Shown in pieces: positions 12,974 to 43,924 of a stretch of DNA of 64,000 bases (the stretch's first letter is position 1; every line of letters begins with the position of its first letter). The translations under genes were made by a program, and so were the position numbers. The notes below the pieces were generated by a model that worked only from the letters and a program-made list of their open reading frames with translations, was not told the origin of the DNA and searched no databases. The DNA comes from Candidatus Moraniibacteriota bacterium (GTDB taxonomy: Bacteria > Patescibacteriota > Minisyncoccia > Moranbacterales > UBA1568): assembly GCA_013334575.1 (NCBI GenBank), contig JAAXXG010000002.1, positions 5,377-69,376 of the forward strand. Reading direction: 5' to 3'.

Positions 12974-14071
12974 TTATCGTTCCTCCGAGGAGCGGTACCG
13001 AAGCGCCCGTTCGATAAAGGTCTCTATCTTGCCGTCGAGGACTCCGGCCGTATCGGCGGTCTCTTCCTTGGTCCGGTGATCCTTCACGAGATTGTACGGA
13101 TGAAGCACGTACGATCGGATCTGATTGCCCCACTCGGCGCTCTTGTGCTCGCCTTTGAGCTCTTTGGTCTCCCGCACCCGTTCTTCGATCGCCCGCTGAT
13201 ACAGCTTCGCCCGGAGGAGTTTCATGGCCTGTTCGCGGTTCTGGAGCTGCGAACGTTCGCTCTGTGAACTGGCAACCACCCCCGTCGGCAGATGCGTCAC
13301 ACGGACGGCGCTCTCGGTCTTGTTCACATGCTGGCCACCGGCTCCGGACGCGCGATAGGTATCGATCCGAAGTTCCTCGGGTTTCACCTCTACCGCCCCG
13401 GTATCCGACAACACTGGGAGCACCTCGACAAGAGCGAACGACGTCTGCCGCAGCCGATCGGCATTGAACGGCGACAGGCGGACCAACCGATGGACGCCCG
13501 CCTCGGTCCGGAGGTATCCGTAAGCGAATTCTCCGCGTATCTCGATAGTCGCGCTCTTGACACCGGCCTCGGTTCCGCGGGATTCATCGATCACGACGGC
13601 ATCGAAGCCGGCACGTTCCGCATATCGAAGGTACATACGCAGCAGCATTTCCGCCCAATCCTGAGCGTCGACACCGCCGGCACCGGCATGAACGGACAAC
13701 AACGCGTCGCCACGGTCATGAGGACCCGAAAACAGGAGTTTAAACTCCCATTCTTCCAGCTCCCTGGAAAGAGATTCCGCCTGTGAAACCATGTCCTTTT
13801 CCTCTTCGGGTCCGAGCCCTTCAATCACCGAGAGCTCCTCGAGGTCGCGCAGCTCGCGGCCGATCCGATCAAGCGCCCCAAGCTCCCGTTCGATCGACTC
13901 AAGCTCCCGCAACGTCGCGGCGGCCGCCGCCGGATCGTTCCATAGATCGGGACTGACGCTTTTTTGCCGCAATTCCTCGCGTCTGAGTTCTTTCGCAGGG
14001 ACGTCAAAGGCATTCCCGCAGGGGCGGGAGTTTCTCCTGAAGCGCGACGATGGTTTCACGGAATCCTTCCA
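12974..14071 (-). CDS. prfB: Peptide chain release factor 2, made from two frames joined by a programmed +1 ribosomal frameshift
   Basis: Frame 0 (14071->14003) reads MEGFRETIVALQEKLPPLRECL-UGA. The +1 frame continues DVPAKELRREEL...SPFNADRLRQTSF...GGQHVNKTESAVR (GGQ motif). The shift site is CUU UGA C, as in E. coli prfB. Confidence 0.9.
   Translation of the reverse strand, partial: WKDSVKPSSRFRRNSRPCGNAFDVPAKELRREELRQKSVSPDLWNDPAAAAATLRELESIERELGALDRIGRELRDLEELSVIEGLGPEEEKDMVSQAESLSRELEEWEFKLLFSGPHDRGDALLSVHAGAGGVDAQDWAEMLLRMYLRYAERAGFDAVVIDESRGTEAGVKSATIEIRGEFAYGYLRTEAGVHRLVRLSPFNADRLRQTSFALVEVLPVLSDTGAVEVKPEELRIDTYRASGAGGQHVNKTESAVRVTHLPTGVVASSQSERSQLQNREQAMKLLRAKLYQRAIEERVRETKELKGEHKSAEWGNQIRSYVLHPYNLVKDHRTKEETADTAGVLDGKIETFIERALRYRSSEER
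14002..14008 (-). other. Programmed +1 frameshift site CUU-UGA-C in prfB
   Basis: The heptanucleotide CTTTGAC sits in frame with the upstream ATG at 14071 on the minus strand, and the RF2 body is in the +1 frame. Confidence 0.85.
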
Positions 14072-31984: not shown

Positions 31985-32212
31985 CATCGGTCGGTATTCT
32001 TTATACTTTCAAACGAAACGTGTAACATAATAATGCGGTCGTCGGATTATGTCGCGCGGCTTTTGAAAGGAGCTCGTCCGCCTTGTCCAACAGACATGGA
32101 CAGTCCGACGACTTTGACACTCCGCTCGGTCAATAACGTATCGGCGCGAACCGAAAAAGGCGCCGGCCCCTTTTCCTGACTCCAGGCCGGATGAGCGCCG
32201 TATCACGATATA

Positions 32213-32241
32213 TTGACATCACATAGAATGCATGCTATATT
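32213..32241 (+). promoter_or_regulatory. Sigma70-type promoter TTGACA-17-TATATT
   Basis: Read directly. It lies 60 nt upstream of the lipoprotein ATG. Confidence 0.5.
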
Positions 32242-32300
32242 AATGTGTTTTGAAGCTTAACAGTTTGCAAACCAGGGCAATAGCCCGCTTCGGAGACATC

Positions 32301-32678
32301 ATGGACAGACCTACCGTTACGCTCGCTATCTGCCTCGCGTTATCATGCACGGCAGCACAACCTACCTCGCAGCAGGTACTCGCTGCCACGGTCATGAAGA
32401 CATCGCCGGCAGTATCGATAAGATTCTACGACATCGAAAGGGTGCGCCCGGTCCAGCTTTCGCCGATGATTTCGGCTACGGCGTCCTGGCCGATGGGAAC
32501 GGAAAGACAAACCGCGATAAAAACGGCGAGGCTTCGCATCCAGGAGGAGTTTAGGAAACTCCCTCTCTACGCCAAAGGATACCGCATCGAGAGTATCCAG
32601 GCTGATGACGGATTTCCCGATTTCCCGTCACAGCGGTTCTACGTCATCCTCCAGTTGACCGGGCCCGGGATCCATTGA
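32301..32678 (+). CDS. Putative lipoprotein (125 aa)
   Basis: The SD GGAG lies 6 nt before the ATG. The signal peptide has a lipobox-like ALSC. Confidence 0.5.
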   Translation: MDRPTVTLAICLALSCTAAQPTSQQVLAATVMKTSPAVSIRFYDIERVRPVQLSPMISATASWPMGTERQTAIKTARLRIQEEFRKLPLYAKGYRIESIQADDGFPDFPSQRFYVILQLTGPGIH

Positions 32679-32697
32679 CTCTCCCATCCGAATTTAT

Positions 32698-32736
32698 CAA
32701 AGCCGCACGGCAACGTGTGGCTTTGTAATTTTTTAG
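32698..32736 (+). terminator. Rho-independent terminator
   Basis: The stem CAAAGCCGCAC / GTGTGGCTTTG has one G.U, followed by TAATTTTTT. Confidence 0.6.
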
Positions 32737-32946
32737 CGGTACCGAACCGCGTTCGTCGCAGTCTGTCATGATCGAAACCAAATCCACCCTCAACCACCGC
32801 GCGCTTCAGCACGTAGAATCCCCGACGACTAGGTTCGTATAGCTGGTAATTTATATCTTCATTGCCGTGGTAATTTACACGGATACCCGCCAGATTCTCA
32901 TCCTCTTCAGATTTTGATGTTGCATGGGAAAAGAACGAGATTCTCA

Positions 32947-32985
32947 CAAAAAGGACTCGTATTACGGGTCCTTATTAATATTTTC
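32947..32985. terminator. Bidirectional terminator downstream of the Nudix gene
   Basis: The stem AAGGACTCG / CGGGTCCTT is flanked by an A-run and a T-run. Confidence 0.5.
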
Positions 32986-33076
32986 TCGTTTCTTCTCGAG
33001 TGCTCGGAAGCGTCATCACGAAGCAAAAAATCCCCGCTTTCTTCGGCCTCGTATTACGGCGCGGATCCGAATGACT

Positions 33077-33559
33077 TCAAAGCGAATTCAAAGCACCATG
33101 GATATCCGCCGCGAGGTCCCCGATATCCTCCTCCCGTATCGAGGTGATCTCGGACCAGCGTGGCGTTTCGGACTCGAGATCGTCCACAAGGTCGTCGCCT
33201 TTGAGTTTTTCCGAACGCACAGCGCATCGGAAAAAGAAAAGAAACGCGTGATAGGCCTCGTCGAGCGGGTCATAGTAGAAGAAGTTCTCCCGACAGAGGA
33301 CCAGTTCCCCGATCTCGACCTCGAGCCCCGTTTCCTCGCGGATCTCCCTCCTCAGGGCGTCTTCCATCCTTTCCCCGACTTCCACGCCGCCGCCCGGAAA
33401 CCACAGCTTGCCGTTCCCCTTGTTCCGCATCGTGACGACGCGGCCTCCGCTGACGATGAATCCGTAGACGCTCGGCCGGAAGAAGAACTTGTCACGCGGA
33501 ACCGGGACGATTTCCCCGCGACTGTTCTTACAGGATATCTGATTCATAGGAATGACCAT
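33077..33559 (-). CDS. Nudix hydrolase
   Basis: The Nudix box is GGGVEVGERMEDALRREIREETGLEVE. Confidence 0.8.
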   Translation of the reverse strand: MVIPMNQISCKNSRGEIVPVPRDKFFFRPSVYGFIVSGGRVVTMRNKGNGKLWFPGGGVEVGERMEDALRREIREETGLEVEIGELVLCRENFFYYDPLDEAYHAFLFFFRCAVRSEKLKGDDLVDDLESETPRWSEITSIREEDIGDLAADIHGALNSL

Positions 33560-33655
33560 TCACGCTATTTATATCAGATGGGGTTTGACGGCAACCCCGC
33601 TTCATAACTGGCGTTCATGCGTCCAAGGATATACTCGCGCACCGGGAAAAATGCT

Positions 33656-34192
33656 TCATGCCTGTTTCGATTTCGTCCGTTCCCCTACTGACCACGGGTG
33701 CAAATCTTCGTAGATGGCATCCTGATAATTATGGGGCTTGAGACGAAGAATCGCTTCGGCTATCGGCATGCAGTGCCGCTCGATCTCGCCGGTGTTTCCG
33801 GTTTTTGTATAGTGTTCGAAACTGTCTATCGTATCCGCCGTCTTGACGATCAGCGCGTCCTCGCCCACTTCAGCGCATCGTCGGACCATATCGTCTATCC
33901 GCTCACGTGAATCCTCTATGGTTCGGTCCTTCGAATTCGCTTGTACGATACGGAGCACGTCCTCTCCGAATCCGTCTCGCAGCGCCTCCTCGGACATATC
34001 CGACCATTCCAAGGCATCATGCAGCAATCCCGCGAGTACGATATTCCGTGAATACCCCTTCCCATACAGGAATACGCCGACCCGGATATCGTGAAACAGG
34101 ATCGGCTTCCGCGACCCCTCTTCCGATACCGGCATACGCTCTGCCAGTGCCCGTACCGCCCGCTCGAATTCGACATCTATCGAGGCATTCAT
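33656..34192 (-). CDS. HD-domain phosphohydrolase
   Basis: The H...HD...D pattern is present (GLLHDALEW). Confidence 0.7.
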   Translation of the reverse strand: MNASIDVEFERAVRALAERMPVSEEGSRKPILFHDIRVGVFLYGKGYSRNIVLAGLLHDALEWSDMSEEALRDGFGEDVLRIVQANSKDRTIEDSRERIDDMVRRCAEVGEDALIVKTADTIDSFEHYTKTGNTGEIERHCMPIAEAILRLKPHNYQDAIYEDLHPWSVGERTKSKQA

Positions 34193-34220
34193 AGTATTCG
34201 AATTTATAACTCAACCTTCT

Positions 34221-34292
34221 TTAAAGTGTCACGCCGAGGAACCAAAGGGTGAAGTCGAGCATCTTGGTGTCGGAGAGCTTCCCGACATTCAT
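34221..34292 (-). CDS. Repeat-family R1 copy A: conserved 23-aa ORF MNVGKLSDTKMLDFTLWFLGVTL, 29 nt upstream of the HD gene
   Basis: Nucleotide conservation with copies at 35988-36049 and 38038-38106, plus two decayed copies. The ATG is preceded by conserved GATATTCCCGGA. Confidence 0.35.
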   Translation of the reverse strand: MNVGKLSDTKMLDFTLWFLGVTL

Positions 34293-34506
34293 GCATCCGG
34301 GAATATCAGCGGGTTTCCGCATCGCACCAAACTCCATATATCCTGCTTCGTACATGTTTAATGCAAATGAGATGTATCGACTACCAATTTGCGATTCATT
34401 CTTCGAACAATTTTTAGATAGACCGTATGGCGCTAATTCCTTCCGAAATAAACTCATCTATCAATAGTATTATTATATACCATCTCATCAAGGGGAAGGT
34501 TTGCTT

Positions 34507-34539
34507 GAAAAAAGCAGGAGCACCGTTTGGAACTCCTGC
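34507..34539 (-). terminator. Terminator of the PRTase gene
   Basis: The stem GCAGGAG / CTCCTGC is followed by a T6 run on the minus strand. Confidence 0.5.
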
Positions 34540-34578
34540 ATTTCATGTAGAAACGAATAATCGAACGGAGGTCGTTGT

Positions 34579-35259
34579 TTACCTGGACGCGTCCACGCTT
34601 ACGCGACCAAGCGCCTGCAAGACCTCGTTATCACGGGTATCTTCGAAAGAATCGTAGAACATGCCGGTAGGAAAGTAATCACTTCTTGATCGGCGGCACG
34701 ATACTACCCTGTGCCCGTTGATAATATCGGGAAACCAATTCAAAATGGCCGGAATACCGATGACGATCTGCGATGCTCCGGCATACTCCATCGCATTAAT
34801 TGCGGCGATAATCGAGCGTCCCGTCACGGCACCATCGTCGATGAGCATCACCCGCTTTCCGATAACATCCTCGGGAATCATTCCGCCGAATATGGCGTGC
34901 TGGGAGGCGACGTTTTTGCGGCAATTTAGCACGATTGGATTTGCCAGAGACGCATCTTCCGCATCCCGAAAGAATGTTTCCGGTTCGAACGCACCGGTTT
35001 TCCATACCGTAGCGGTGCCGAAGCCAGTCAGAAATACGGCAACTTCACCGCCCTCAATTTCCTGCGACGGAATCCGGCAATCGTCGACTGAGAAGGAATA
35101 CAACGGCACATCAAGGAGACTCGCTACCTCTTTCGCGACGACGATTCCTCCACGAGCGAGTCCTACGACAATCGTATTTGTCGTCTCGGACGCTTCTCCG
35201 GCGGCGACAATACTGCTTGCCAATTGTCGCCCAGCATCAGTGCGGTTTTCGAAAATCAT
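34579..35259 (-). CDS. Type I phosphoribosyltransferase-family protein (COG1926-like)
   Basis: The PRPP-binding motif is VMLIDDGAVTGRS. The N-terminus is MIFENRTDAGRQLA. Confidence 0.7.
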   Translation of the reverse strand: MIFENRTDAGRQLASSIVAAGEASETTNTIVVGLARGGIVVAKEVASLLDVPLYSFSVDDCRIPSQEIEGGEVAVFLTGFGTATVWKTGAFEPETFFRDAEDASLANPIVLNCRKNVASQHAIFGGMIPEDVIGKRVMLIDDGAVTGRSIIAAINAMEYAGASQIVIGIPAILNWFPDIINGHRVVSCRRSRSDYFPTGMFYDSFEDTRDNEVLQALGRVSVDASR

Positions 35260-35367
35260 GGATATGTTGGTTTTGTTAGAAAAATGTTTAAGGCGTCGAC
35301 CGTTCGTCGACGCCTTGTTGAGACTTGATCCTACCGAGGCCGCGCAGGATTATCAGCAGTAGGAGTA

Positions 35368-35655
35368 TCAGCAGTAGGAGACGTGCTCTGACGCGGCATG
35401 ATTCCTGAGATCATCGAGGTCGATGCCGAAGTCGGCGGAGAGATTTTCGGCGCCCGCCGCAAGCGAGGAGTCGGCGATGACGATGGCGAGCAGCTGAATG
35501 CCAGGCATCTTGTGCGGCTCGGCATTCCCGCCCAGCAGCTTTGCCTTGATGATCTTGTCGGCGTGCATGATAGCTTCTTCCATGATGTCAGCCTCTTCCA
35601 TTTGCGCCTCTTTGATGGCGTCGCGCATGCCGCAGTGATTGATCGCATGACCCAT
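35368..35655 (-). CDS. Hypothetical protein (95 aa)
   Basis: The ATG at 35655 has SD GGGGGA 5 nt upstream. Sequence: MGHAINHCGMRDAIKEAQMEEADIM... I recognise no confident domain. Confidence 0.4.
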   Translation of the reverse strand: MGHAINHCGMRDAIKEAQMEEADIMEEAIMHADKIIKAKLLGGNAEPHKMPGIQLLAIVIADSSLAAGAENLSADFGIDLDDLRNHAASEHVSYC

Positions 35656-35848
35656 AGTATCCCCCGTTGTTTTGTGGTGATTATTGTTGTTGTAGTATAC
35701 GATCGTCACCAGATGATCGCATTCCTCATGAGCAGATTTTTCTCATCAGTCCTGGGGAATGCAATCATCGGCGTGCGCAGGCGGTGCCATACATCGAATC
35801 GGAAAGTTATTAAATGACTGAACATATTAGCAAATATAAACGACTCTG

Positions 35849-36049
35849 TCAAGAATTATATTTATATAGTCGATAATTAGGCTTATTTTTAACGTTTTTC
35901 TTAAACTTGGCCAAAGTTATGACTATTTCCAACGGGTATAAATACAGTATCGCAACGGCCTTATAGATCAAAAATCGTGGTACCATCGCGCCCAATGACC
36001 AGAGAGCAAAGTCAAGCATCTTGGTGCCGAAAAACCTCTCGACGTTCAT
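35849..36049 (-). CDS. Repeat-family R1 copy B, extended to 66 aa (MNVERFFGTKMLDFALWSLGAMV...)
   Basis: Same conserved element as above. Here there is no stop after codon 23, so the ORF continues into an AT-rich hydrophobic tail. Confidence 0.3.
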   Translation of the reverse strand: MNVERFFGTKMLDFALWSLGAMVPRFLIYKAVAILYLYPLEIVITLAKFKKNVKNKPNYRLYKYNS

Positions 36050-36079
36050 GTACTAAAAATATCATCGTGAATCGGAAAA

Positions 36080-36179
36080 GGTACCTGACCCCTTTTCTGG
36101 CTCATCAAATCAACTGGCGCGTACCGGCATAAACACATCGGGTCTTTTCTAGCTTGAGCCAGAAAAGAGGTCAGGCGCC
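36080..36179. repeat. Inverted pair of R2 repeats (GGTACCTGACCCCTTTTCTGGCTCA ... TGAGCCAGAAAAGAGGTCAGGCGCC), 24-25-bp arms about 50 nt apart
   Basis: Read directly. Related single copies lie at 38972-39005 and 39563-39589. Confidence 0.5.
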
Positions 36180-36338
36180 ATTTGAGAGTCTTCCCCTCCT
36201 CCGAAGAAGGTCAATTCCAGACCGAGAGCAGAAGCCATTCGTATGATCTACTCGTTTTCTCCGAACGGCGTCCCGCGATTCACATTTTCGAACCGTGTCT
36301 ATCAGTTTTCACTTGAAAAAAAATACCTAATCCACTTT

Positions 36339-37415
36339 CTAACTTGTTTGCTGGCACTTAAAATCGTTCTTTATCATATATTCCGATCCATCGCCATCCT
36401 TTTCTATATGCTTATCTGGATTGCGAAAAATGTCGATCATCGTTCTAATGAACCTCTCTTTCACTTCCTTGTGGATCTCGATCATTCTACGGACTTGAGC
36501 TTCATCCAAGGCGTCCATTATTTTATCGTCAATTCCGAATATTTCTTTTCCATAATCCTCCGAAAGGGCAAAATTCATTCCCTTTTCCACTTTCCTTGCA
36601 ATTTGATAGACGTATGTTTTCAAGCGGTCGTCTTCTTCGATCAATTTCGAAAGGACGATATCCCTGAAAGAAAACGTGTAGACATCCCCTTCGCCAAGGA
36701 TTTTTTCCGCCCGCGTCACGTCTTCCGTCGACAACTTCCCTTTCGTCGTATCAGACAGCAGCCCCGACCCCAATGGAGCCGAAAAATACATCCCCCCATA
36801 TTTTGCCGAAAAATCTTCGCCGAAGAGATCTTTAACTATCTCACGATTAATCAAATAGTATGCCTTATTAGGGGGGAGCAGTTTTTTGGAAAACAAATCC
36901 CTCCCTTCTCCTGCACCATCACTCCCTTTGCGGTCGTGATCGAGCATCTTCGACAAAGAGTCCTTATCCAGCACCTCCTGATCGACAATCTCATACAACA
37001 GTCGACCGGTCCTGCCATTGCCGTCGGAAAACGGATGAATCGCCTGAATACTATAGTAGAGTAACGTCGCTCTATCTTCATTGTCGCGCAAATTTTTCAA
37101 GGCATCAAAGGCTTCTTTCATCAGCGTATCCTTTTGTTCCGGATATGGAGGCAGATATGCCACGCCTTGAATACCGTAGGAAAGTTCAGTATTTGCTCCG
37201 TCGATACCCCTCCTATTTGTCGGCAATTCCCTGATGATTCCGTTGAGTCTTGAAACGAAATTCTTAAAATCGTCATATGACACATCGAAGATCCATTCGT
37301 CGAACTTTTCCTCCGAGCGCTTCATTTCAGAGAATCCGGATTTTTCTAAAAAATTGAAGACCATTTCTCCGGTATTCATCCTTTCCGCATTCCCTTGCAT
37401 CATTTCCAACGACAT
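36339..37415 (-). CDS. fic: Fic/DOC-family protein (AMPylator-type fold)
   Basis: The canonical Fic motif HPFSDGNGRTGR is present. Size is 358 aa with low GC. Confidence 0.85.
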   Translation of the reverse strand: MSLEMMQGNAERMNTGEMVFNFLEKSGFSEMKRSEEKFDEWIFDVSYDDFKNFVSRLNGIIRELPTNRRGIDGANTELSYGIQGVAYLPPYPEQKDTLMKEAFDALKNLRDNEDRATLLYYSIQAIHPFSDGNGRTGRLLYEIVDQEVLDKDSLSKMLDHDRKGSDGAGEGRDLFSKKLLPPNKAYYLINREIVKDLFGEDFSAKYGGMYFSAPLGSGLLSDTTKGKLSTEDVTRAEKILGEGDVYTFSFRDIVLSKLIEEDDRLKTYVYQIARKVEKGMNFALSEDYGKEIFGIDDKIMDALDEAQVRRMIEIHKEVKERFIRTMIDIFRNPDKHIEKDGDGSEYMIKNDFKCQQTS

Positions 37416-37514
37416 AGGCTTGTCTTAATCCGGACGAAACGAACGCGAATCAAAAAAGTGCCTTACGACTATTCTGGCTCCGATTTTTCCAAAAACTGCA
37501 CCAAGAGACGGAGC

Positions 37515-37555
37515 CGGACATCTTGGCATCGGAACACTTCGCGGCGTTCGACTCT
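37515..37555 (-). repeat. Decayed R1 copy (no ATG) between Nudix and Fic
   Basis: GAGAGTCGAACGCCGCGAAGTGTTCCGATGCCAAGATG aligns at about 75% to the R1 core. Confidence 0.4.
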
Positions 37556-37984
37556 CTATGACGATAGAGCTCTTGCGATACGAGCCGCTTTTCCCACGGC
37601 GGTTCGGAAGTTGTCGTTAAGCCAATGGATGTCGGCAAGGCTGTCGGATCCGACCCACCGCGCCTCCGCGTGTTCGTCGCTCATGTGAATAGTATCCTCT
37701 TCAACGGCGCGGCAGAGATAGAATACGGTATATTTCGGAGGATCCTCGATGCCCCAGCGGGCCGCATGAACCGGCGTGACGATATCGATATCGAGGCCGG
37801 TTTCCTCCTTTACTTCGCGTCGAAGCCCCTCTTCCGGTTCGTCTTCCGCTTCGAGCCTTCCACCGGGAAGCATCCACATCTCCGTCGTGAATTCCTCGTT
37901 CAGCGGCAACCGAAGGATCAGTAACTCGCCCCGTTCGTTCATGATGACTCCGTATTCCCCGACATTACACGTCAATCTCGACAT
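37556..37984 (-). CDS. Nudix hydrolase (second copy)
   Basis: The Nudix box is GGRLEAEDEPEEGLRREVKEETGLDIDI. The start is ATG 37984 (MSRL) or 37942 (MNERG, better SD). The ORF track's 38059 start overlaps R1 copy C. Confidence 0.75.
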   Translation of the reverse strand: MSRLTCNVGEYGVIMNERGELLILRLPLNEEFTTEMWMLPGGRLEAEDEPEEGLRREVKEETGLDIDIVTPVHAARWGIEDPPKYTVFYLCRAVEEDTIHMSDEHAEARWVGSDSLADIHWLNDNFRTAVGKAARIARALSS

Positions 37985-38034
37985 ACTGCTTTTCGATTTC
38001 CATATCAGATCGCAAACGATGAATTTATTATACC

Positions 38035-38106
38035 TCACATGATCGCGCCGAGGGACCACAGGGCAAAATCGAGCATCTTGGTGTCGGAGAACTTCTCGAC
38101 GTTCAT
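38035..38106 (-). CDS. Repeat-family R1 copy C: MNVEKFSDTKMLDFALWSLGAIM
   Basis: It has the same conserved upstream box GATATTCCCGGACAC-ATG and lies 50-90 nt upstream of the second Nudix gene. Confidence 0.35.
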   Translation of the reverse strand: MNVEKFSDTKMLDFALWSLGAIM

Positions 38107-38162
38107 GTGTCCGGGAATATCATTTCGTACAAAAAATTGCCTAGCCTTTTTCGACTTCACAT

Positions 38163-38194
38163 AAAAACCCGTCACGGCTTATCGCCATGACGGG
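38163..38194 (-). terminator. Terminator of the ITPase gene
   Basis: The stem CCCGTCA / TGACGGG has a nested GGC/GCC and a T5 run on the minus strand. Confidence 0.55.
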
Positions 38195-38225
38195 AACCGA
38201 TTTCTTGTCCAAGAAAACTACCGAA

Positions 38226-38765
38226 TCAGAATCCTCGCAGGAAGGCTTCGTAAAACACCTGTTTAAGCCCCTCCGTCAGGATCTTCCGCCTGGAAACCCT
38301 GCAGCCGGACATCACGATATGCGGATCGGTAGGATCTCCGCCGAAGCGCTCGGAAAATACCGACCCGACGGTCGTTGTCCCGAAGCCGCGCTCCTCGGCT
38401 TCCGCGACGCATGCGTCGGGAAATCGCATCCCTTCGGATATCGAAACGTATTCTCTCCCGTCCGGCAACAGCAGAACGATGATAGCGACATCGATTGGAA
38501 ATCGCCTGCCGTCAGCTCCCCCGAATCGGACGATTCCGTTCTCGATACCTATTCCGATGACGTCAGACCCGGTCGCCGCAGCCCCCTTCGCCCGGTTCGA
38601 TGCGCCACGATAGATTTCCTCCAGGCCTTCCGGCTGCGCGTTTACCAATGACGGGATATCCTTGCCCGACACGTCAGCCAGTATCCCCATACTGACGCAG
38701 ACCGCCGAAACCGGACCGACCTTGTGTTCGCTTTCCGAGCCGACAACGATATGTTTTCGTTGCAT
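38226..38765 (-). CDS. YjjX/DUF84-family inosine/xanthosine triphosphatase-like protein
   Basis: VNAQPEGLEEIYRGASNRAKGA aligns by eye to the YjjX [22 protein letters not shown] region, and the C-terminus is similar. Confidence 0.6.
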   Translation of the reverse strand: MQRKHIVVGSESEHKVGPVSAVCVSMGILADVSGKDIPSLVNAQPEGLEEIYRGASNRAKGAAATGSDVIGIGIENGIVRFGGADGRRFPIDVAIIVLLLPDGREYVSISEGMRFPDACVAEAEERGFGTTTVGSVFSERFGGDPTDPHIVMSGCRVSRRKILTEGLKQVFYEAFLRGF

Positions 38766-38924
38766 ATTTCGTTTCTCCTGTTAAGTTTCGAAAATCATCT
38801 CTGTTTTGTAGCAGAGACGTTACGAAACGTCAAGATTCCACAAGGTTTCGACGTCTTCGGTCATCCGACCGATACACGACTCCGTTCGCGCTTCCTTGCA
38901 TAGGACGGGATCCGCCTGCTCCCT

Positions 38925-39005
38925 AGCCCATGACCGAGGACGTTCACGCCTCCGAGAATATCATCGTGAATTGAAAAGGCACCTGACTTCTTTTTCGGCT
39001 CTGGC
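38925..39005 (-). repeat. Decayed R1 copy (ATG->GTG, diverges after 7 codons) abutting an R2 copy (GGCACCTGACTTCTTTTTCGGCTCTGGC)
   Basis: Read directly. The R2 copy ends at the stop codon of the P-loop gene. Confidence 0.4.
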
Positions 39006-39524
39006 TTATAATATACCGGCTCTGATGAGGGCATCTTCCAAGTATTCGCCCGGTTGCATGATAATTTTTTCGTTTGGTTGGTTTACGAAATCCTCGAAAT
39101 CGCTCTGAATGTTCGTCTCGATTCTTTTGACAAATTCTTCATTCGCGCCTCTTTCTCTTGCCCGTTCAATATACTCCTCCTTGCACGTCGGGTCCGGATA
39201 CGCCAACACAAATTCTATGCCATAGTCTCGCATTTCCGAGAAAGGCATACATGGTGCTATGAGAACAATGTCATATATTCCGTTTTTCACTTCTTTAAGA
39301 ATCGCATCGTAATAATTGTTCGGCCAAGCGGGATTGATCTCCCTTTTTGTCGATTTCAGGCTTTCCTTGTTCACGACGGCCTTTTGTTCCTCAGTCAGGA
39401 TATACTTGTAGTCGCCGCTCGGTAGCTCGATTATATTATTATATTTCTTCGTCAAATACGTTTTTCCCGCACAAATCCACGCGCTAATTACGAGTGTTTC
39501 CTTTTTCGTCGATCCATTTTTCAT
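39006..39524 (-). CDS. Hypothetical P-loop NTPase / small kinase-like protein
   Basis: The Walker-A-like motif is ISAWICAGKTY. Size is 172 aa with low GC. Confidence 0.4.
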   Translation of the reverse strand: MKNGSTKKETLVISAWICAGKTYLTKKYNNIIELPSGDYKYILTEEQKAVVNKESLKSTKREINPAWPNNYYDAILKEVKNGIYDIVLIAPCMPFSEMRDYGIEFVLAYPDPTCKEEYIERARERGANEEFVKRIETNIQSDFEDFVNQPNEKIIMQPGEYLEDALIRAGIL

Positions 39525-39562
39525 AAATGTAATAATTGGATATTGAATCTGGAACGCAACTA

Positions 39563-39589
39563 AAAAAGTACCTGACCCTTTTTCTTGCT
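39563..39589 (-). repeat. R2 repeat copy (AAAAAAGTACCTGACCCTTTTTCTTGC)
   Basis: It sits directly 3' of the HNH-like gene stop. Confidence 0.4.
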
Positions 39590-39591
39590 TC

Positions 39592-40362
39592 TTATTTTAC
39601 TTTTTGTAGTGTTTGTTTTTCTCTTAAGCTTTCGCCAATTTTTTTAATAATACTTAACTCAGCGGAATCGTCTAGATCTCCGGATACCATATATAATCTT
39701 GGCATCATTCCAAGAAGTAATCTCTGAAAAGTGCTTGGGGCCTGTAGCTTATCCACTTTTATGTAAACAACGTACCCGCTTCCAAAGTATATCTGGTAAA
39801 ATCGTACTCCATCGATTCTAATTGGTCGTGGATCTAATAGGATTTCCCTAGCAAATTTATTTTTTTCGATGTCGAACTTCCTTATGAAAATAGTGAATGA
39901 TTGATTAGAATCCTCGACGTTATTATCAATCATATCCTTTAGTACTGTTTGATATGGACCCAGCACAACATGTTGATAAAATATATTCTCAGATATATCT
40001 GCTCGAAAAAGGACGGAGCAAAAGAACATTTTTAGTTTTACAAAATCAACTTCTTGCTCAAATACCCATCCAACCGGGTAGGCTCCGCCTTCTTCAAAGA
40101 TTGCTCTAAAGCTAGATTGATTTTGTAACAATATCTTTTGTCCATAATCATCAAGGGGCTTAAACTTTTCTTCGCAGGACAAACACAAAATCTCCTGATC
40201 ATAGATACCTATTCTGCTCTTTTTTGTATGTTCATCCTTATTGCTTGATACAACTAAAAGATGGTCACTTTCCTTTTTTATGGCTCGGAAAAAACTCTCA
40301 GGAATTACATGAGATTTGACTAATTTTTCAAATTCTCGACTACACATCTTGCAAGTCTTCAT
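39592..40362 (-). CDS. Putative HNH/His-Me-finger endonuclease-like protein
   Basis: The ATG at 40362 gives MKTCKMCSREFEKLVKSHVIPESFF... A second CxxC pair (CLSCEEKF) follows. It is very AT-rich, and the assignment is tentative. The ORF track's 301-aa version overlaps the dnaK 3' end. Confidence 0.35.
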   Translation of the reverse strand: MKTCKMCSREFEKLVKSHVIPESFFRAIKKESDHLLVVSSNKDEHTKKSRIGIYDQEILCLSCEEKFKPLDDYGQKILLQNQSSFRAIFEEGGAYPVGWVFEQEVDFVKLKMFFCSVLFRADISENIFYQHVVLGPYQTVLKDMIDNNVEDSNQSFTIFIRKFDIEKNKFAREILLDPRPIRIDGVRFYQIYFGSGYVVYIKVDKLQAPSTFQRLLLGMMPRLYMVSGDLDDSAELSIIKKIGESLREKQTLQKVK

Positions 40363-40370
40363 AAATATAT

Positions 40371-40400
40371 GAAGAGCGGAGGTATAACACCTCCGCTCTT
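40371..40400 (-). terminator. dnaK terminator
   Basis: A 12-bp perfect stem GAAGAGCGGAGG / CCTCCGCTCTTC lies 9 nt after the dnaK stop and is followed by a T-rich tract on the minus strand. Confidence 0.6.
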
Positions 40401-40408
40401 CGTAAACC

Positions 40409-42337
<1,929 letters not shown>

Positions 42338-42937: not shown

Positions 42938-43828
42938 CTAGGCGACGCTCACCTTCGCCGCCGCGATCACCTTGTCCCCCATCATGTAGCCCTTGCGATG
43001 CACAGTGGTGATCTTCTGTACGTTTCCTTCCCTGACCTCCCCGTCCGTACCGATCGCCTCGTGCCGGGACGGATCGAAGTCGTCACCGACCTTCGGCTCA
43101 ATGAGCGCAACGCCGTTCTGCGAGAGCACGTCCTCGAACTGCTTCGCTATGTAGCCGATACCGGTCACCCACGGGCTGTCCTTGGCCTCTTCCGGGACAT
43201 GTGCGGCCGCCGCATGGAAGTTGTCGAGTACCGGTATCAAATCAAGCACGAGCCGCTCCACCTTGTACGCGCCCATCTCGGCACCCTCGGCATCGCGTCG
43301 TTTGCGGTAGTTCTCGAAATCCGCCAGGCACCGCTTCCAGCCGGACAAGGCGTCGCGATTCTCCAGATGCTCCTTCGCAAGGAGGACGGTTCGCCGCTTG
43401 TCGGCCTCGTAGCCCTTGTCTTCGAAGGTCTCCGCGGCCTCGTCGAGCGTCATCCACTCGAAGCCGTCATGTTCGGCCGGGTCGGTCTTCACCCCGGCAT
43501 CGTGGGTAAAGGCGACGAAGCGGAGGGCTTGGAGCGCGTCGCCCTCATCACTCGTGAGATGGCGGAAGAACGGAAGCGGCACAATATCACGGACGGCAAG
43601 TCCGGTCTCTTCCCTTACTTCGCGGACGATCGTCTCTTCCGGCGTCTCGTCCGCATCCACGTGTCCGCCGGGAAGGTCGCGCTTGCCCGATCCGCGCCGA
43701 TCACCCTTAGCCCGCGTCAGGACGAGGACGCGCCCGTCCGGACCGATGACGGCGGCCTTGACCGTGATGCGGAAGATCCCGTCCGTCGGCTTCCCGTCCG
43801 TCATTTCGTGCGTTTTCTTTCCGGTCAT
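42938..43828 (-). CDS. grpE: GrpE nucleotide-exchange factor whose N-terminal region is a Nudix hydrolase domain
   Basis: Residues about 30-150 carry the Nudix box GGHVDADETPEETIVREVREETGL. Residues about 150-296 are GrpE (WKRCLADFENYRKRRDAE...KITTVHRKGYMMGDKVIAAAKVSVA). It reads as a single continuous frame. Confidence 0.8.
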   Translation of the reverse strand: MTGKKTHEMTDGKPTDGIFRITVKAAVIGPDGRVLVLTRAKGDRRGSGKRDLPGGHVDADETPEETIVREVREETGLAVRDIVPLPFFRHLTSDEGDALQALRFVAFTHDAGVKTDPAEHDGFEWMTLDEAAETFEDKGYEADKRRTVLLAKEHLENRDALSGWKRCLADFENYRKRRDAEGAEMGAYKVERLVLDLIPVLDNFHAAAAHVPEEAKDSPWVTGIGYIAKQFEDVLSQNGVALIEPKVGDDFDPSRHEAIGTDGEVREGNVQKITTVHRKGYMMGDKVIAAAKVSVA

Positions 43829-43854: not shown

Positions 43855-43924
43855 GTCATTCCCGCGAAGGCGGGAATCCTGGCGAAAAAGAGAGGGTCAA
43901 GATTCCCGCCTTCGCGGGAATGAC
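43855..43924. repeat. Inverted pair of dRS3-like repeats GTCATTCCCGCGAAGGCGGGAATC ... GATTCCCGCCTTCGCGGGAATGAC
   Basis: Read directly in the hrcA-grpE intergenic. The plus-strand translation gives the familiar ...PAFAGMT... repeat-derived peptide. Confidence 0.6.

Follow-up and report, generated by a model that had tools for sequence, protein, structure and literature searches.

Why does one short element recur, always on the same strand, in front of a series of small unrelated genes beside the chaperone gene dnaK? The question arises in a 64,000-nucleotide (nt) window of a Candidatus Moraniibacteriota genome (assembly GCA_013334575.1, contig JAAXXG010000002.1, positions 5,377 to 69,376); "the window" refers to this whole stretch throughout. 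A sequence-only reading of the window had described a 70- to 85-nt unit in five minus-strand copies, the intact ones consisting of a box followed by ATG, 23 codons, and a stop, and had offered three explanations: a shared leader or upstream open reading frame (ORF), the junction of a cassette array, or a copied 5' gene fragment. We find that the repeated element is the 3' end of a gene, here called gene X, comprising its last 25 to 45 codons, its stop codon, and about 20 nt beyond, and that the gene X protein has the "MNVEKFSDTKMLDFALWSLG" peptide as its C-terminal tail. These tails, together with a 27-nt box that we call D2, are probably the scars and junctions that remain where single-gene cassettes were repeatedly inserted and replaced at a hot spot following dnaK.

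A repeat search recovered an 80-nt minus-strand family at 34229 to 34308 (copy A), 35986 to 36065 (copy B), and 38043 to 38122 (copy C), and shorter repeat families tie these copies to 37522 to 37549 (copy D), 38939 to 38964 (copy E), and 33610 to 33635 (copy F). The repeats thus lie where they had been reported and occur far above chance. Copies A and C are 86% identical, while B is 63% identical to A and ∼79% identical to C. The 22-nt core TCGAGCATCTTGGTGTCGGAGA is the same in A and C, and the upstream 26-nt box GACGTTCATGnnTCCGGGAATATCAT occurs at 34284, 38098, and 38939; the expected number of matches in shuffled sequences is zero for both. Homology between A and C continues ∼20 nt beyond the stop codon, where 38122 to 38021 aligns with 34308 to 34200 in an intergenic comparison. 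The two copies that had been called decayed are weaker yet real. Copy D is 81% identical over 31 nt and scores 19, when the best of 50 shuffles reached 15, and copy E, which directly follows the stop of a 172-amino-acid (aa) gene and precedes the ITPase gene, is 78% identical to B over 64 nt. Copy F is weak and was not recovered with three or fewer mismatches. The conserved unit is longer than had been described, since multiple alignment extends it ∼45 nt further 5' in B, C, and E, where it begins at D2.

The identity of the repeat came from related genomes. A codon-degenerate version of the pattern matched three related metagenome contigs, in which the motif ends a 210-aa ORF (...GRFVRAGIGPEDVGKISDTKMLDFALWALGDVLRSG and stop). 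A fourth match, L084, was rejected as a chance match in an AT-rich genome. Exact and near-exact forms of the core had no match in viral contigs and none in GTDB species genomes, so neither set includes the source genome; the DnaK sequence of the window likewise had no exact match on record. In a tblastn search, the 210-aa protein matched the window only at copies A, B, and C and also matched the relative L006. A profile of 206 positions built from five gene X proteins (P0001 to P0005) aligned with copy C at positions 170 to 206 (E = 1.3e-9), with copy A at positions 184 to 203 (E = 3.7e-5), and with copy B at positions 185 to 205 (E = 1.7e-4), but found no N-terminal piece and no full copy anywhere in the window. 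Copies A to E, and possibly F, all come from the last 25 to 45 codons of gene X, and all are on the minus strand. In the protein alignment, the C terminus of P0002 reads NVEKISDTKMLDFALWALG versus NVEKFSDTKMLDFALWSLG in copy C, and the upstream box GATATTCCCGGA encodes the D-I-P-G of gene X (...FVRLGIPRTNVEKISDTKMLDFALWALG in P0002, ...FFVRNDIPGHMNVEKFSDTKMLDFALWSLG in copy C). A copied gene fragment was therefore the closest of the earlier explanations, except that the fragment is the 3', C-terminal end of a gene of ∼200 codons and not a 5' end.

The ATG that had been taken for the start of a 23-codon mini-ORF is an internal codon of gene X. Relatives read RTNVEK, EDVGK, or TNVER there, and the ATG itself is replaced by ACG in L085, falls in RTN in P0002, and is replaced by ED in P0001. 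Because relatives carry internal residues at this position, the mini-ORF is not an independent unit. Its described length holds for copies A and C, which stop after 22 to 23 codons, and fails for copy B, in which a 1-nt deletion between box and tail shifts the frame; B has no stop there and continues as a 66-aa ORF (36049 to 35849). We considered and rejected this ORF as a genuine stand-alone small protein, since its homology is limited to its first 21 residues; it has no homologue among 5.8 billion proteins. Copy A lies at the end of a 78-aa ORF containing GSRYISFA, which resembles the SFASK motif in the middle of the family's proteins. The match is not significant on its own, and copy A may be an internally deleted gene X.

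Proteins of the gene X family are ∼200 aa long, helical, and distantly similar to DUF6308, and their predicted fold bears a weak resemblance to that of Ogg-type DNA glycosylases. Against the Pfam model for DUF6308, P0001 reaches 20.4 bits, below the gathering cutoff of 27.3, and PF19827 (DUF6308) is found in just a subset of the more distant members, so we describe the family as related to DUF6308 and not as part of it. A profile search returned ∼2,000 cluster representatives, mostly of 180 to 210 aa, and all of those with names are called "hypothetical protein"; a literature search found no papers on DUF6308. A few members (P0025 and P0027) are fused to NERD or DUF2726 nuclease-type domains. 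Homologues stand alone in many unrelated neighborhoods, which marks gene X as accessory and as having no fixed partner. A fixed two-gene system of gene X plus effector was rejected for the same reason and because extra tails are confined to the window and L006/L085/L086. We also rejected the idea that gene X belongs to phages or serves them as an attachment site, given only two distant viral loci and no match of D2 in viral contigs. Two contigs from one metagenome assembly, L082 (1,647 nt) and L083 (the start of a 76-kb contig), overlap inside gene X: L082 ends ∼90 nt past the gene, and codon 73 is where L083 starts, a pattern suggestive of an assembly fork and hence of population heterogeneity at gene X.

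The tails differ from one another in the manner of coding sequence. Between A and C we count four synonymous and four nonsynonymous changes in 19 codons, in agreement with the near parity noted earlier. Across window copies, the L085 fragment, and intact genes, the ratio of nonsynonymous to synonymous divergence (pN/pS) over the 19 shared codons is 0.12 to 0.37, with the exception of two comparisons that involve the AT-rich and very divergent gene of L085; among the copies themselves pN/pS is 0.13 to 0.30, and synonymous divergence (pS) among fragments is 0.33 to 0.67. Of five pairs compared by Fisher tests, four gave P values of 1e-4 to 2e-3, and the A-C pair gave 0.05; variable alignment columns fall 6, 5, and 15 times at codon positions 1, 2, and 3. 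As the differences are mostly synonymous, the copies belonged to translated genes while they diverged and did not arise by recent duplication in place. The high synonymous divergence also suggests that the tails derive from different gene X alleles, that is, from different acquisition events or donors.

Every repeat copy in the window falls within an 8.4-kb island (32.0 to 40.4 kb) directly 3' of dnaK. Its GC content of 0.38 to 0.55 compares with ∼0.59 for the rest of the window and shifts abruptly from cassette to cassette, between 0.38 and 0.58. On the conserved side the gene order is hrcA, a Nudix-grpE fusion, a tRNA-binding protein gene, and dnaK; the island begins at the dnaK terminator, the hairpin of which is also conserved in relatives. 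Beyond the far side lie EamA-like, TPM, CYTH, and DUF975 ORFs. Between these limits are ∼10 minus-strand genes of differing families and unrelated functions, encoding proteins of 95 to 358 aa, in the following order from dnaK: 256-aa gene, 172-aa gene, ITPase, Nudix-2, Fic, 95-aa gene, phosphoribosyltransferase (PRTase), HD, Nudix-1, and 102-aa gene. The Pfam matches (HD_4, Nudix, Fic, NTPase_I-T, and phosphoribosyltransferase) uphold the HD, Nudix, ITPase, and Fic labels given before, and the island genes were probably imported. The repeats lie at the cassette boundaries. Direct repeats of D2 bracket the 172-aa gene and the Fic gene, direct repeats of D2 plus the box bracket the ITPase gene, and direct repeats of the gene X tail bracket Nudix-2. 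Copy C stands between the ITPase terminator and Nudix-2. The earlier image of a cassette junction is thus apt as a description, in that co-oriented single genes of unrelated function and heterogeneous composition are bounded by repeats at a variable spot.

The same locus varies among relatives. The closest relative by DnaK (93% identical), L006/L085, has the order dnaK, intact gene X, a 217-aa gene, D2, a gene X tail fragment, two further D2 boxes, and a Nudix-2 homologue; in L006 the full-length gene X directly follows dnaK, and the C-terminal-only fragment lies 0.8 kb further on. By this gene order, window and relative have the tail plus Nudix-2 module in common, and the module of L006/L085/L086 is 62% identical to the window's in Nudix protein, 77% in Nudix DNA, and 83% in tail DNA. 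The cargo genes otherwise lack a match in the dnaK flanks of 80 relatives, except for two weak matches in L037 (HD over 39 aa and Nudix-1 at 38%) and distant Nudix-domain similarity. In each close relative, dnaK is followed by a different gene. Over 65 Moranbacteria loci, the first kilobase past dnaK averages 9.6 GC points below dnaK itself, and the contigs of several close relatives end 0.3 to 0.9 kb past dnaK. In L005 (11969 to 12697), L015 (11909 to 12648), and L073 (11866 to 12216), a single gene after dnaK sits between duplicates of the last dnaK codons, stop, and terminator (42 to 53 nt, 87 to 98% identical), and the inserted ORF runs into the second copy, uses its stop, and so ends on dnaK-like codons. 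In L055 (5811 to 6615), the inserted gene is flanked by a duplicated terminator hairpin only. The inserts are strongly AT-rich in L005, L015, and L055.

D2 has the consensus GAGCCAGAAAAGGGGTCAGGTACCTTTTT and occurs eight times in the island and four times in two relatives, mostly a few to ∼60 nt past the stop codon of a cargo gene. It is joined to the 5' side of the gene X tail in three copies and stands alone at four further gene boundaries, and one copy is inverted; all others are direct repeats. The box has a short stem between an A-run and a T-run. Its center, GTCAGGT, is best conserved, with a weak flanking dyad (AGAAAAGG and CCTTTTCC) that matches at 7 of 8 positions in the best copy and less well in most. 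No match was found in viral contigs or in 78 other Moranbacteria dnaK loci. The inverted copy pairs with a direct one across 36069 to 36190, just upstream of copy B, with 36-nt arms that are 81% complementary and 50 nt apart, an arrangement like that of a hairpin or a miniature inverted-repeat transposable element.

We infer serial insertion, and the type of recombination behind it, from these static arrangements. The spot after dnaK would be a hot spot for insertion and replacement, at which each event would either duplicate a short segment at the insertion point or bring in a newcomer with a copy of its own. The segment would then be left on both sides of the newcomer, as when a circle integrates by recombination at a short shared site, and older tails with their downstream genes would be pushed away from dnaK. 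The tails would be pseudogene scars and D2 a preferred junction, not a regulatory leader, and recombination might be driven by homology or by a recombinase encoded elsewhere.

Several observations weigh against this account. The simplest serial-integration model predicts an intact gene X at the dnaK-proximal end, and the window has none there; copy A, the most complete remnant, sits in the middle of the array. No recombinase or integrase domain was found among the 27 window ORFs scanned against Pfam, a scan that included both island edges, where a search for such a gene had been suggested, but was not exhaustive; island ORFs have no Pfam domains of integrase genes or remnants. The recombinase could be encoded elsewhere in the genome. 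Copy C and the L085 fragment share the same truncated layout and yet differ by eight synonymous versus four nonsynonymous changes, a combination of shared truncation and selected-looking divergence that can arise only if the two were truncated independently at one site or if the fragment went on being translated. At the DNA level there is no clear D2 in the intact gene X of L088, which bears on whether D2 comes from gene X coding sequence or is a separate element. Finally, all of the evidence for the account is a comparison of sequences as they now stand.

The absence of a clear D2 from the L088 gene, together with the conserved center and weak dyad, leads us to keep a competing explanation in which a site-specific recombinase (tyrosine, Xer-like) with its gene elsewhere in the genome acts on D2 as its core site, the island is a true cassette array, and the gene X tails mark the original attachment site. 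The recurrence of D2 soon after cargo stop codons, its direct orientation on the flanks of cassettes, and the AT-rich replacements after dnaK that end at a D2 in both the window and L085 all fit this explanation. We nevertheless consider it unlikely, with no recombinase found in the window, a dyad that is poor in most copies, and D2 itself confined as described above. Moreover, the analogous duplications in L005, L015, and L073 use quite different sequence, which indicates that the process is not tied to D2. It is quite improbable that the tails were instead retained as a reused module of expression signals, with a promoter just after the stop codon or with D2 as a terminator. Copies A and C do share a post-stop sequence with TATAAT or TATAAA, D2 has the A-run, stem, and T-run after stop codons noted above, and other Moranbacteria (for example, L031 and L023) reuse promoter- or terminator-like intergenic modules of 50 to 125 nt. 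However, a consensus promoter scan found no sigma-70-like site on the coding strand of A, B, or C, with total matches at the chance level, a terminator scan did not score D2 as a terminator, and signal modules would leave the codon-position pattern of variation unexplained.

A translated upstream mini-ORF, attenuator, or structured leader that coregulates nucleotide-hydrolase genes, or in a variant a stand-alone microprotein of 23 to 46 aa, would account for the open frames and low pN/pS of A and C and for the coding-type substitutions between copy C and the L085 fragment despite the truncation of both. We regard this as very unlikely. Apart from the internal position of the ATG and its loss in L085 and P0002, B is frameshifted, D, E, and F are truncated, and the distance from copy to downstream start codon ranges from ∼12 to ∼330 nt. 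Rfam covariance models matched nothing in the repeats, and in the whole window only two tRNAs reached the gathering score. Single-sequence fold z-scores on the coding strand were 0.18, −0.26, and −0.08 and spanned −1.6 to +1.0 overall, with no stable hairpin on either strand. The covariation that a conserved structure would leave was almost absent, with an RNAalifold consensus of −6.4 kcal/mol, a covariation term of −0.7, and one pair with a double change. An integron-type array, in which the repeats would be attC sites recombined by IntI, is suggested by co-oriented, short, functionally unrelated genes with a recurring element between them, but it is effectively refuted. The repeats have no imperfect-palindrome fold on either strand, the junctions lack GTTRRRY or RYYYAAC ends, no integrase adjoins either end of the array, and the repeat is protein-coding sequence.

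Table 1. Positions of the island, its conserved edge, the gene X tails, and separate D2 boxes in the window
Feature	Positions	Strand	Description
Variable island	32029..40408	-	∼10 co-oriented small genes; GC content 0.38 to 0.55
dnaK and terminator	40371..42337	-	Conserved island edge; dnaK 40409-42337, terminator hairpin 40401-40371
Copy A	34200..34457	-	78-aa ORF 34457-34221 ending ...ADIPGCMNVGKLSDTKMLDFTLWFLGVTL and stop; repeat proper 34311-34221
Copy B	35985..36103	-	Best D2 box 36102-36076, box region, tail NVERFFGTKMLDFALWSLGA
Copy C	38035..38165	-	Degenerate D2 (∼38156-38130), box GATATTCCCGGA, tail ...NDIPGHMNVEKFSDTKMLDFALWSLGAIM and stop (38037-38035)
Copy D	37453..37549	-	Decayed tail 37549-37519, then D2 box 37479-37453; between Nudix-2 and Fic
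Copy E	38939..39001	-	D2 box and GATATTCTCGGAGGCGTGAACGTC; homology then lost, tail deleted
Possible copy F	33610..33635	-	Box region only, 19/26 matches, before Nudix-1
D2 alone	39563..39589	-	2 nt past stop of 256-aa AT-rich gene; 0 mismatches to pattern
D2, degenerate	36318..36344	-	Overlaps Fic stop codon
D2, inverted	36155..36190	+	Inverted repeat with 36069-36104
D2, most degenerate and last	32155..32181	-	Low-coordinate island end; sequence GGAAAAGGGGCCGGCGCC

The first gene after dnaK (39592 to 40362, minus strand) encodes a 256-aa protein with the N terminus MKTCKMCSREFEKLVKSHVIPESFF; it has a GC content of 0.36, no Pfam or PADLOC match, and no counterpart in 80 related loci. Among the island proteins, Fic has a match to the PADLOC SoFic model and Nudix-2 has one to PDC-S07; together with the NERD and DUF2726 fusions of gene X, these matches hint that the island and gene X are related to defense. 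On the other side of dnaK, GrpE (42938 to 43828, minus strand) is one 296-aa ORF with an N-terminal Nudix domain (Pfam NUDIX, 1.3e-20; GrpE, 2.4e-34), a fusion that is also called in the relative L085/L086. The gap between hrcA and grpE holds a near-perfect inverted repeat (43855 to 43924) with 27-nt arms, 96% complementary, and a 16-nt loop, which seems unlike the consensus of the CIRCE element (controlling inverted repeat of chaperone expression).

Small post-dnaK genes in other Moranbacteria are separated by intergenic repeats of 110 to 127 nt. That of L040 (13117 to 13243, 13619 to 13730, and 14189 to 14265) forms a long imperfect palindrome (AATCCACCTCA...TGAGGTGGATT), that of L031 (9993 to 10054, 11982 to 12105, and 12785 to 12909) ends in the promoter-like box TGTGCTAGAAT, and that of L044 lies at 13126 to 13235 and 13781 to 13891. 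A terminator-like element, AAAGAAAAAGGCCGGCCC...GGGCCGG, is found between genes in L022 (6977 to 7028 and 8083 to 8131), L023 (14860 to 14894 and 15504 to 15538), and L017 (9692 to 9745 and 12178 to 12229), and the most degenerate D2 of the window resembles it.

One false lead is removed by these results, in that the nucleotide-hydrolase genes have no shared leader or regulon; the "hydrolase" theme of HD, Nudix, ITPase, Fic, and PRTase is the content of a variable, possibly defense-related island. What emerges is a gene-gain hot spot directly after dnaK across Candidatus Moranbacteria, with a recurrent signature in which the tail of the upstream gene is duplicated on either side of a one-gene insert. 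A bolder proposal, which we rate as rather unlikely, is that Moranbacteria acquire single-gene cassettes by an undescribed process that targets a resident gene's 3' end or terminator, duplicates this 30- to 130-nt tail on both sides, and requires no recombinase gene in the cassette. D2 may then be one such junction and the dnaK tail plus terminator another, and the driver could be a recombinase acting in trans or RecA-mediated integration of circles on short homology. If real, this process would serve reduced genomes as a functional counterpart of integrons. Bacteria of the Candidate Phyla Radiation (CPR) have tiny genomes and few recognized mobile elements, and a mechanism whose cassettes carry no recombinase gene, if true, would bear on the question of how they exchange accessory genes.

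Integron arrays and clusters of attC sites lacking an integron integrase (CALINs) consist of co-oriented small cassettes of unrelated function. The island resembles them in its cassettes and in the recurring element between them; it differs in having no attC hairpin, no GTTRRRY core, and no IntI near the array, and its recurring element is a gene fragment. A literature search found nothing relevant on integrons in Patescibacteria. The pdif sites of Acinetobacter plasmids have XerC and XerD arms in an 11-6-11 layout and lie as inverted pairs around modules. Like such Xer-dependent modules, among them integrative mobile elements exploiting Xer (IMEX), the window has small modules bounded by a site of 27 to 28 nt and no recombinase gene in the module, but unlike pdif, the 27-nt D2 is only weakly symmetric and nearly always direct.

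The orphan toxin/immunity modules of rhs and cdiA (PMC3967940, PMC6336857) offer another parallel. There too, displaced modules each follow a short conserved piece of the main gene, the pieces have diverged as coding sequence, and the arrangement is explained by displacement through newly acquired modules. In rhs and cdiA, however, the piece continues in frame into a variable toxin domain that is followed by an immunity gene, whereas in the window it is the very end of a gene, stop codon included, and what varies is a distinct gene unrelated to it.

The island is most like the tRNA-targeting serial-integration islands, such as the tycheposons of Prochlorococcus, in which each later integration at a site displaces the earlier ones inward while partial target copies stay behind (10.1101/2020.12.28.424599). 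Integration at a short shared site is the accepted reason for the partial tRNA copies that islands contain and, by analogy, for the orphan rhs and cdiA modules. Shared with them are partial 3' copies in the same orientation between cargo genes, an adjoining conserved gene, variable content, and older modules that seem to have been displaced inward. The intact target gene at the end of the array is absent from the window but present in L006/L085, where gene X follows dnaK. Unlike in tycheposons, the target here is a protein-coding accessory gene (or, in relatives, the dnaK tail plus terminator) and not a tRNA, and the modules of the window are single genes of 0.5 to 1 kb without integrase, replication, or excision genes. 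The repeated element, with one unexplained twist, is otherwise of an ordinary kind, close to the target-gene fragments that serial-integration islands carry.

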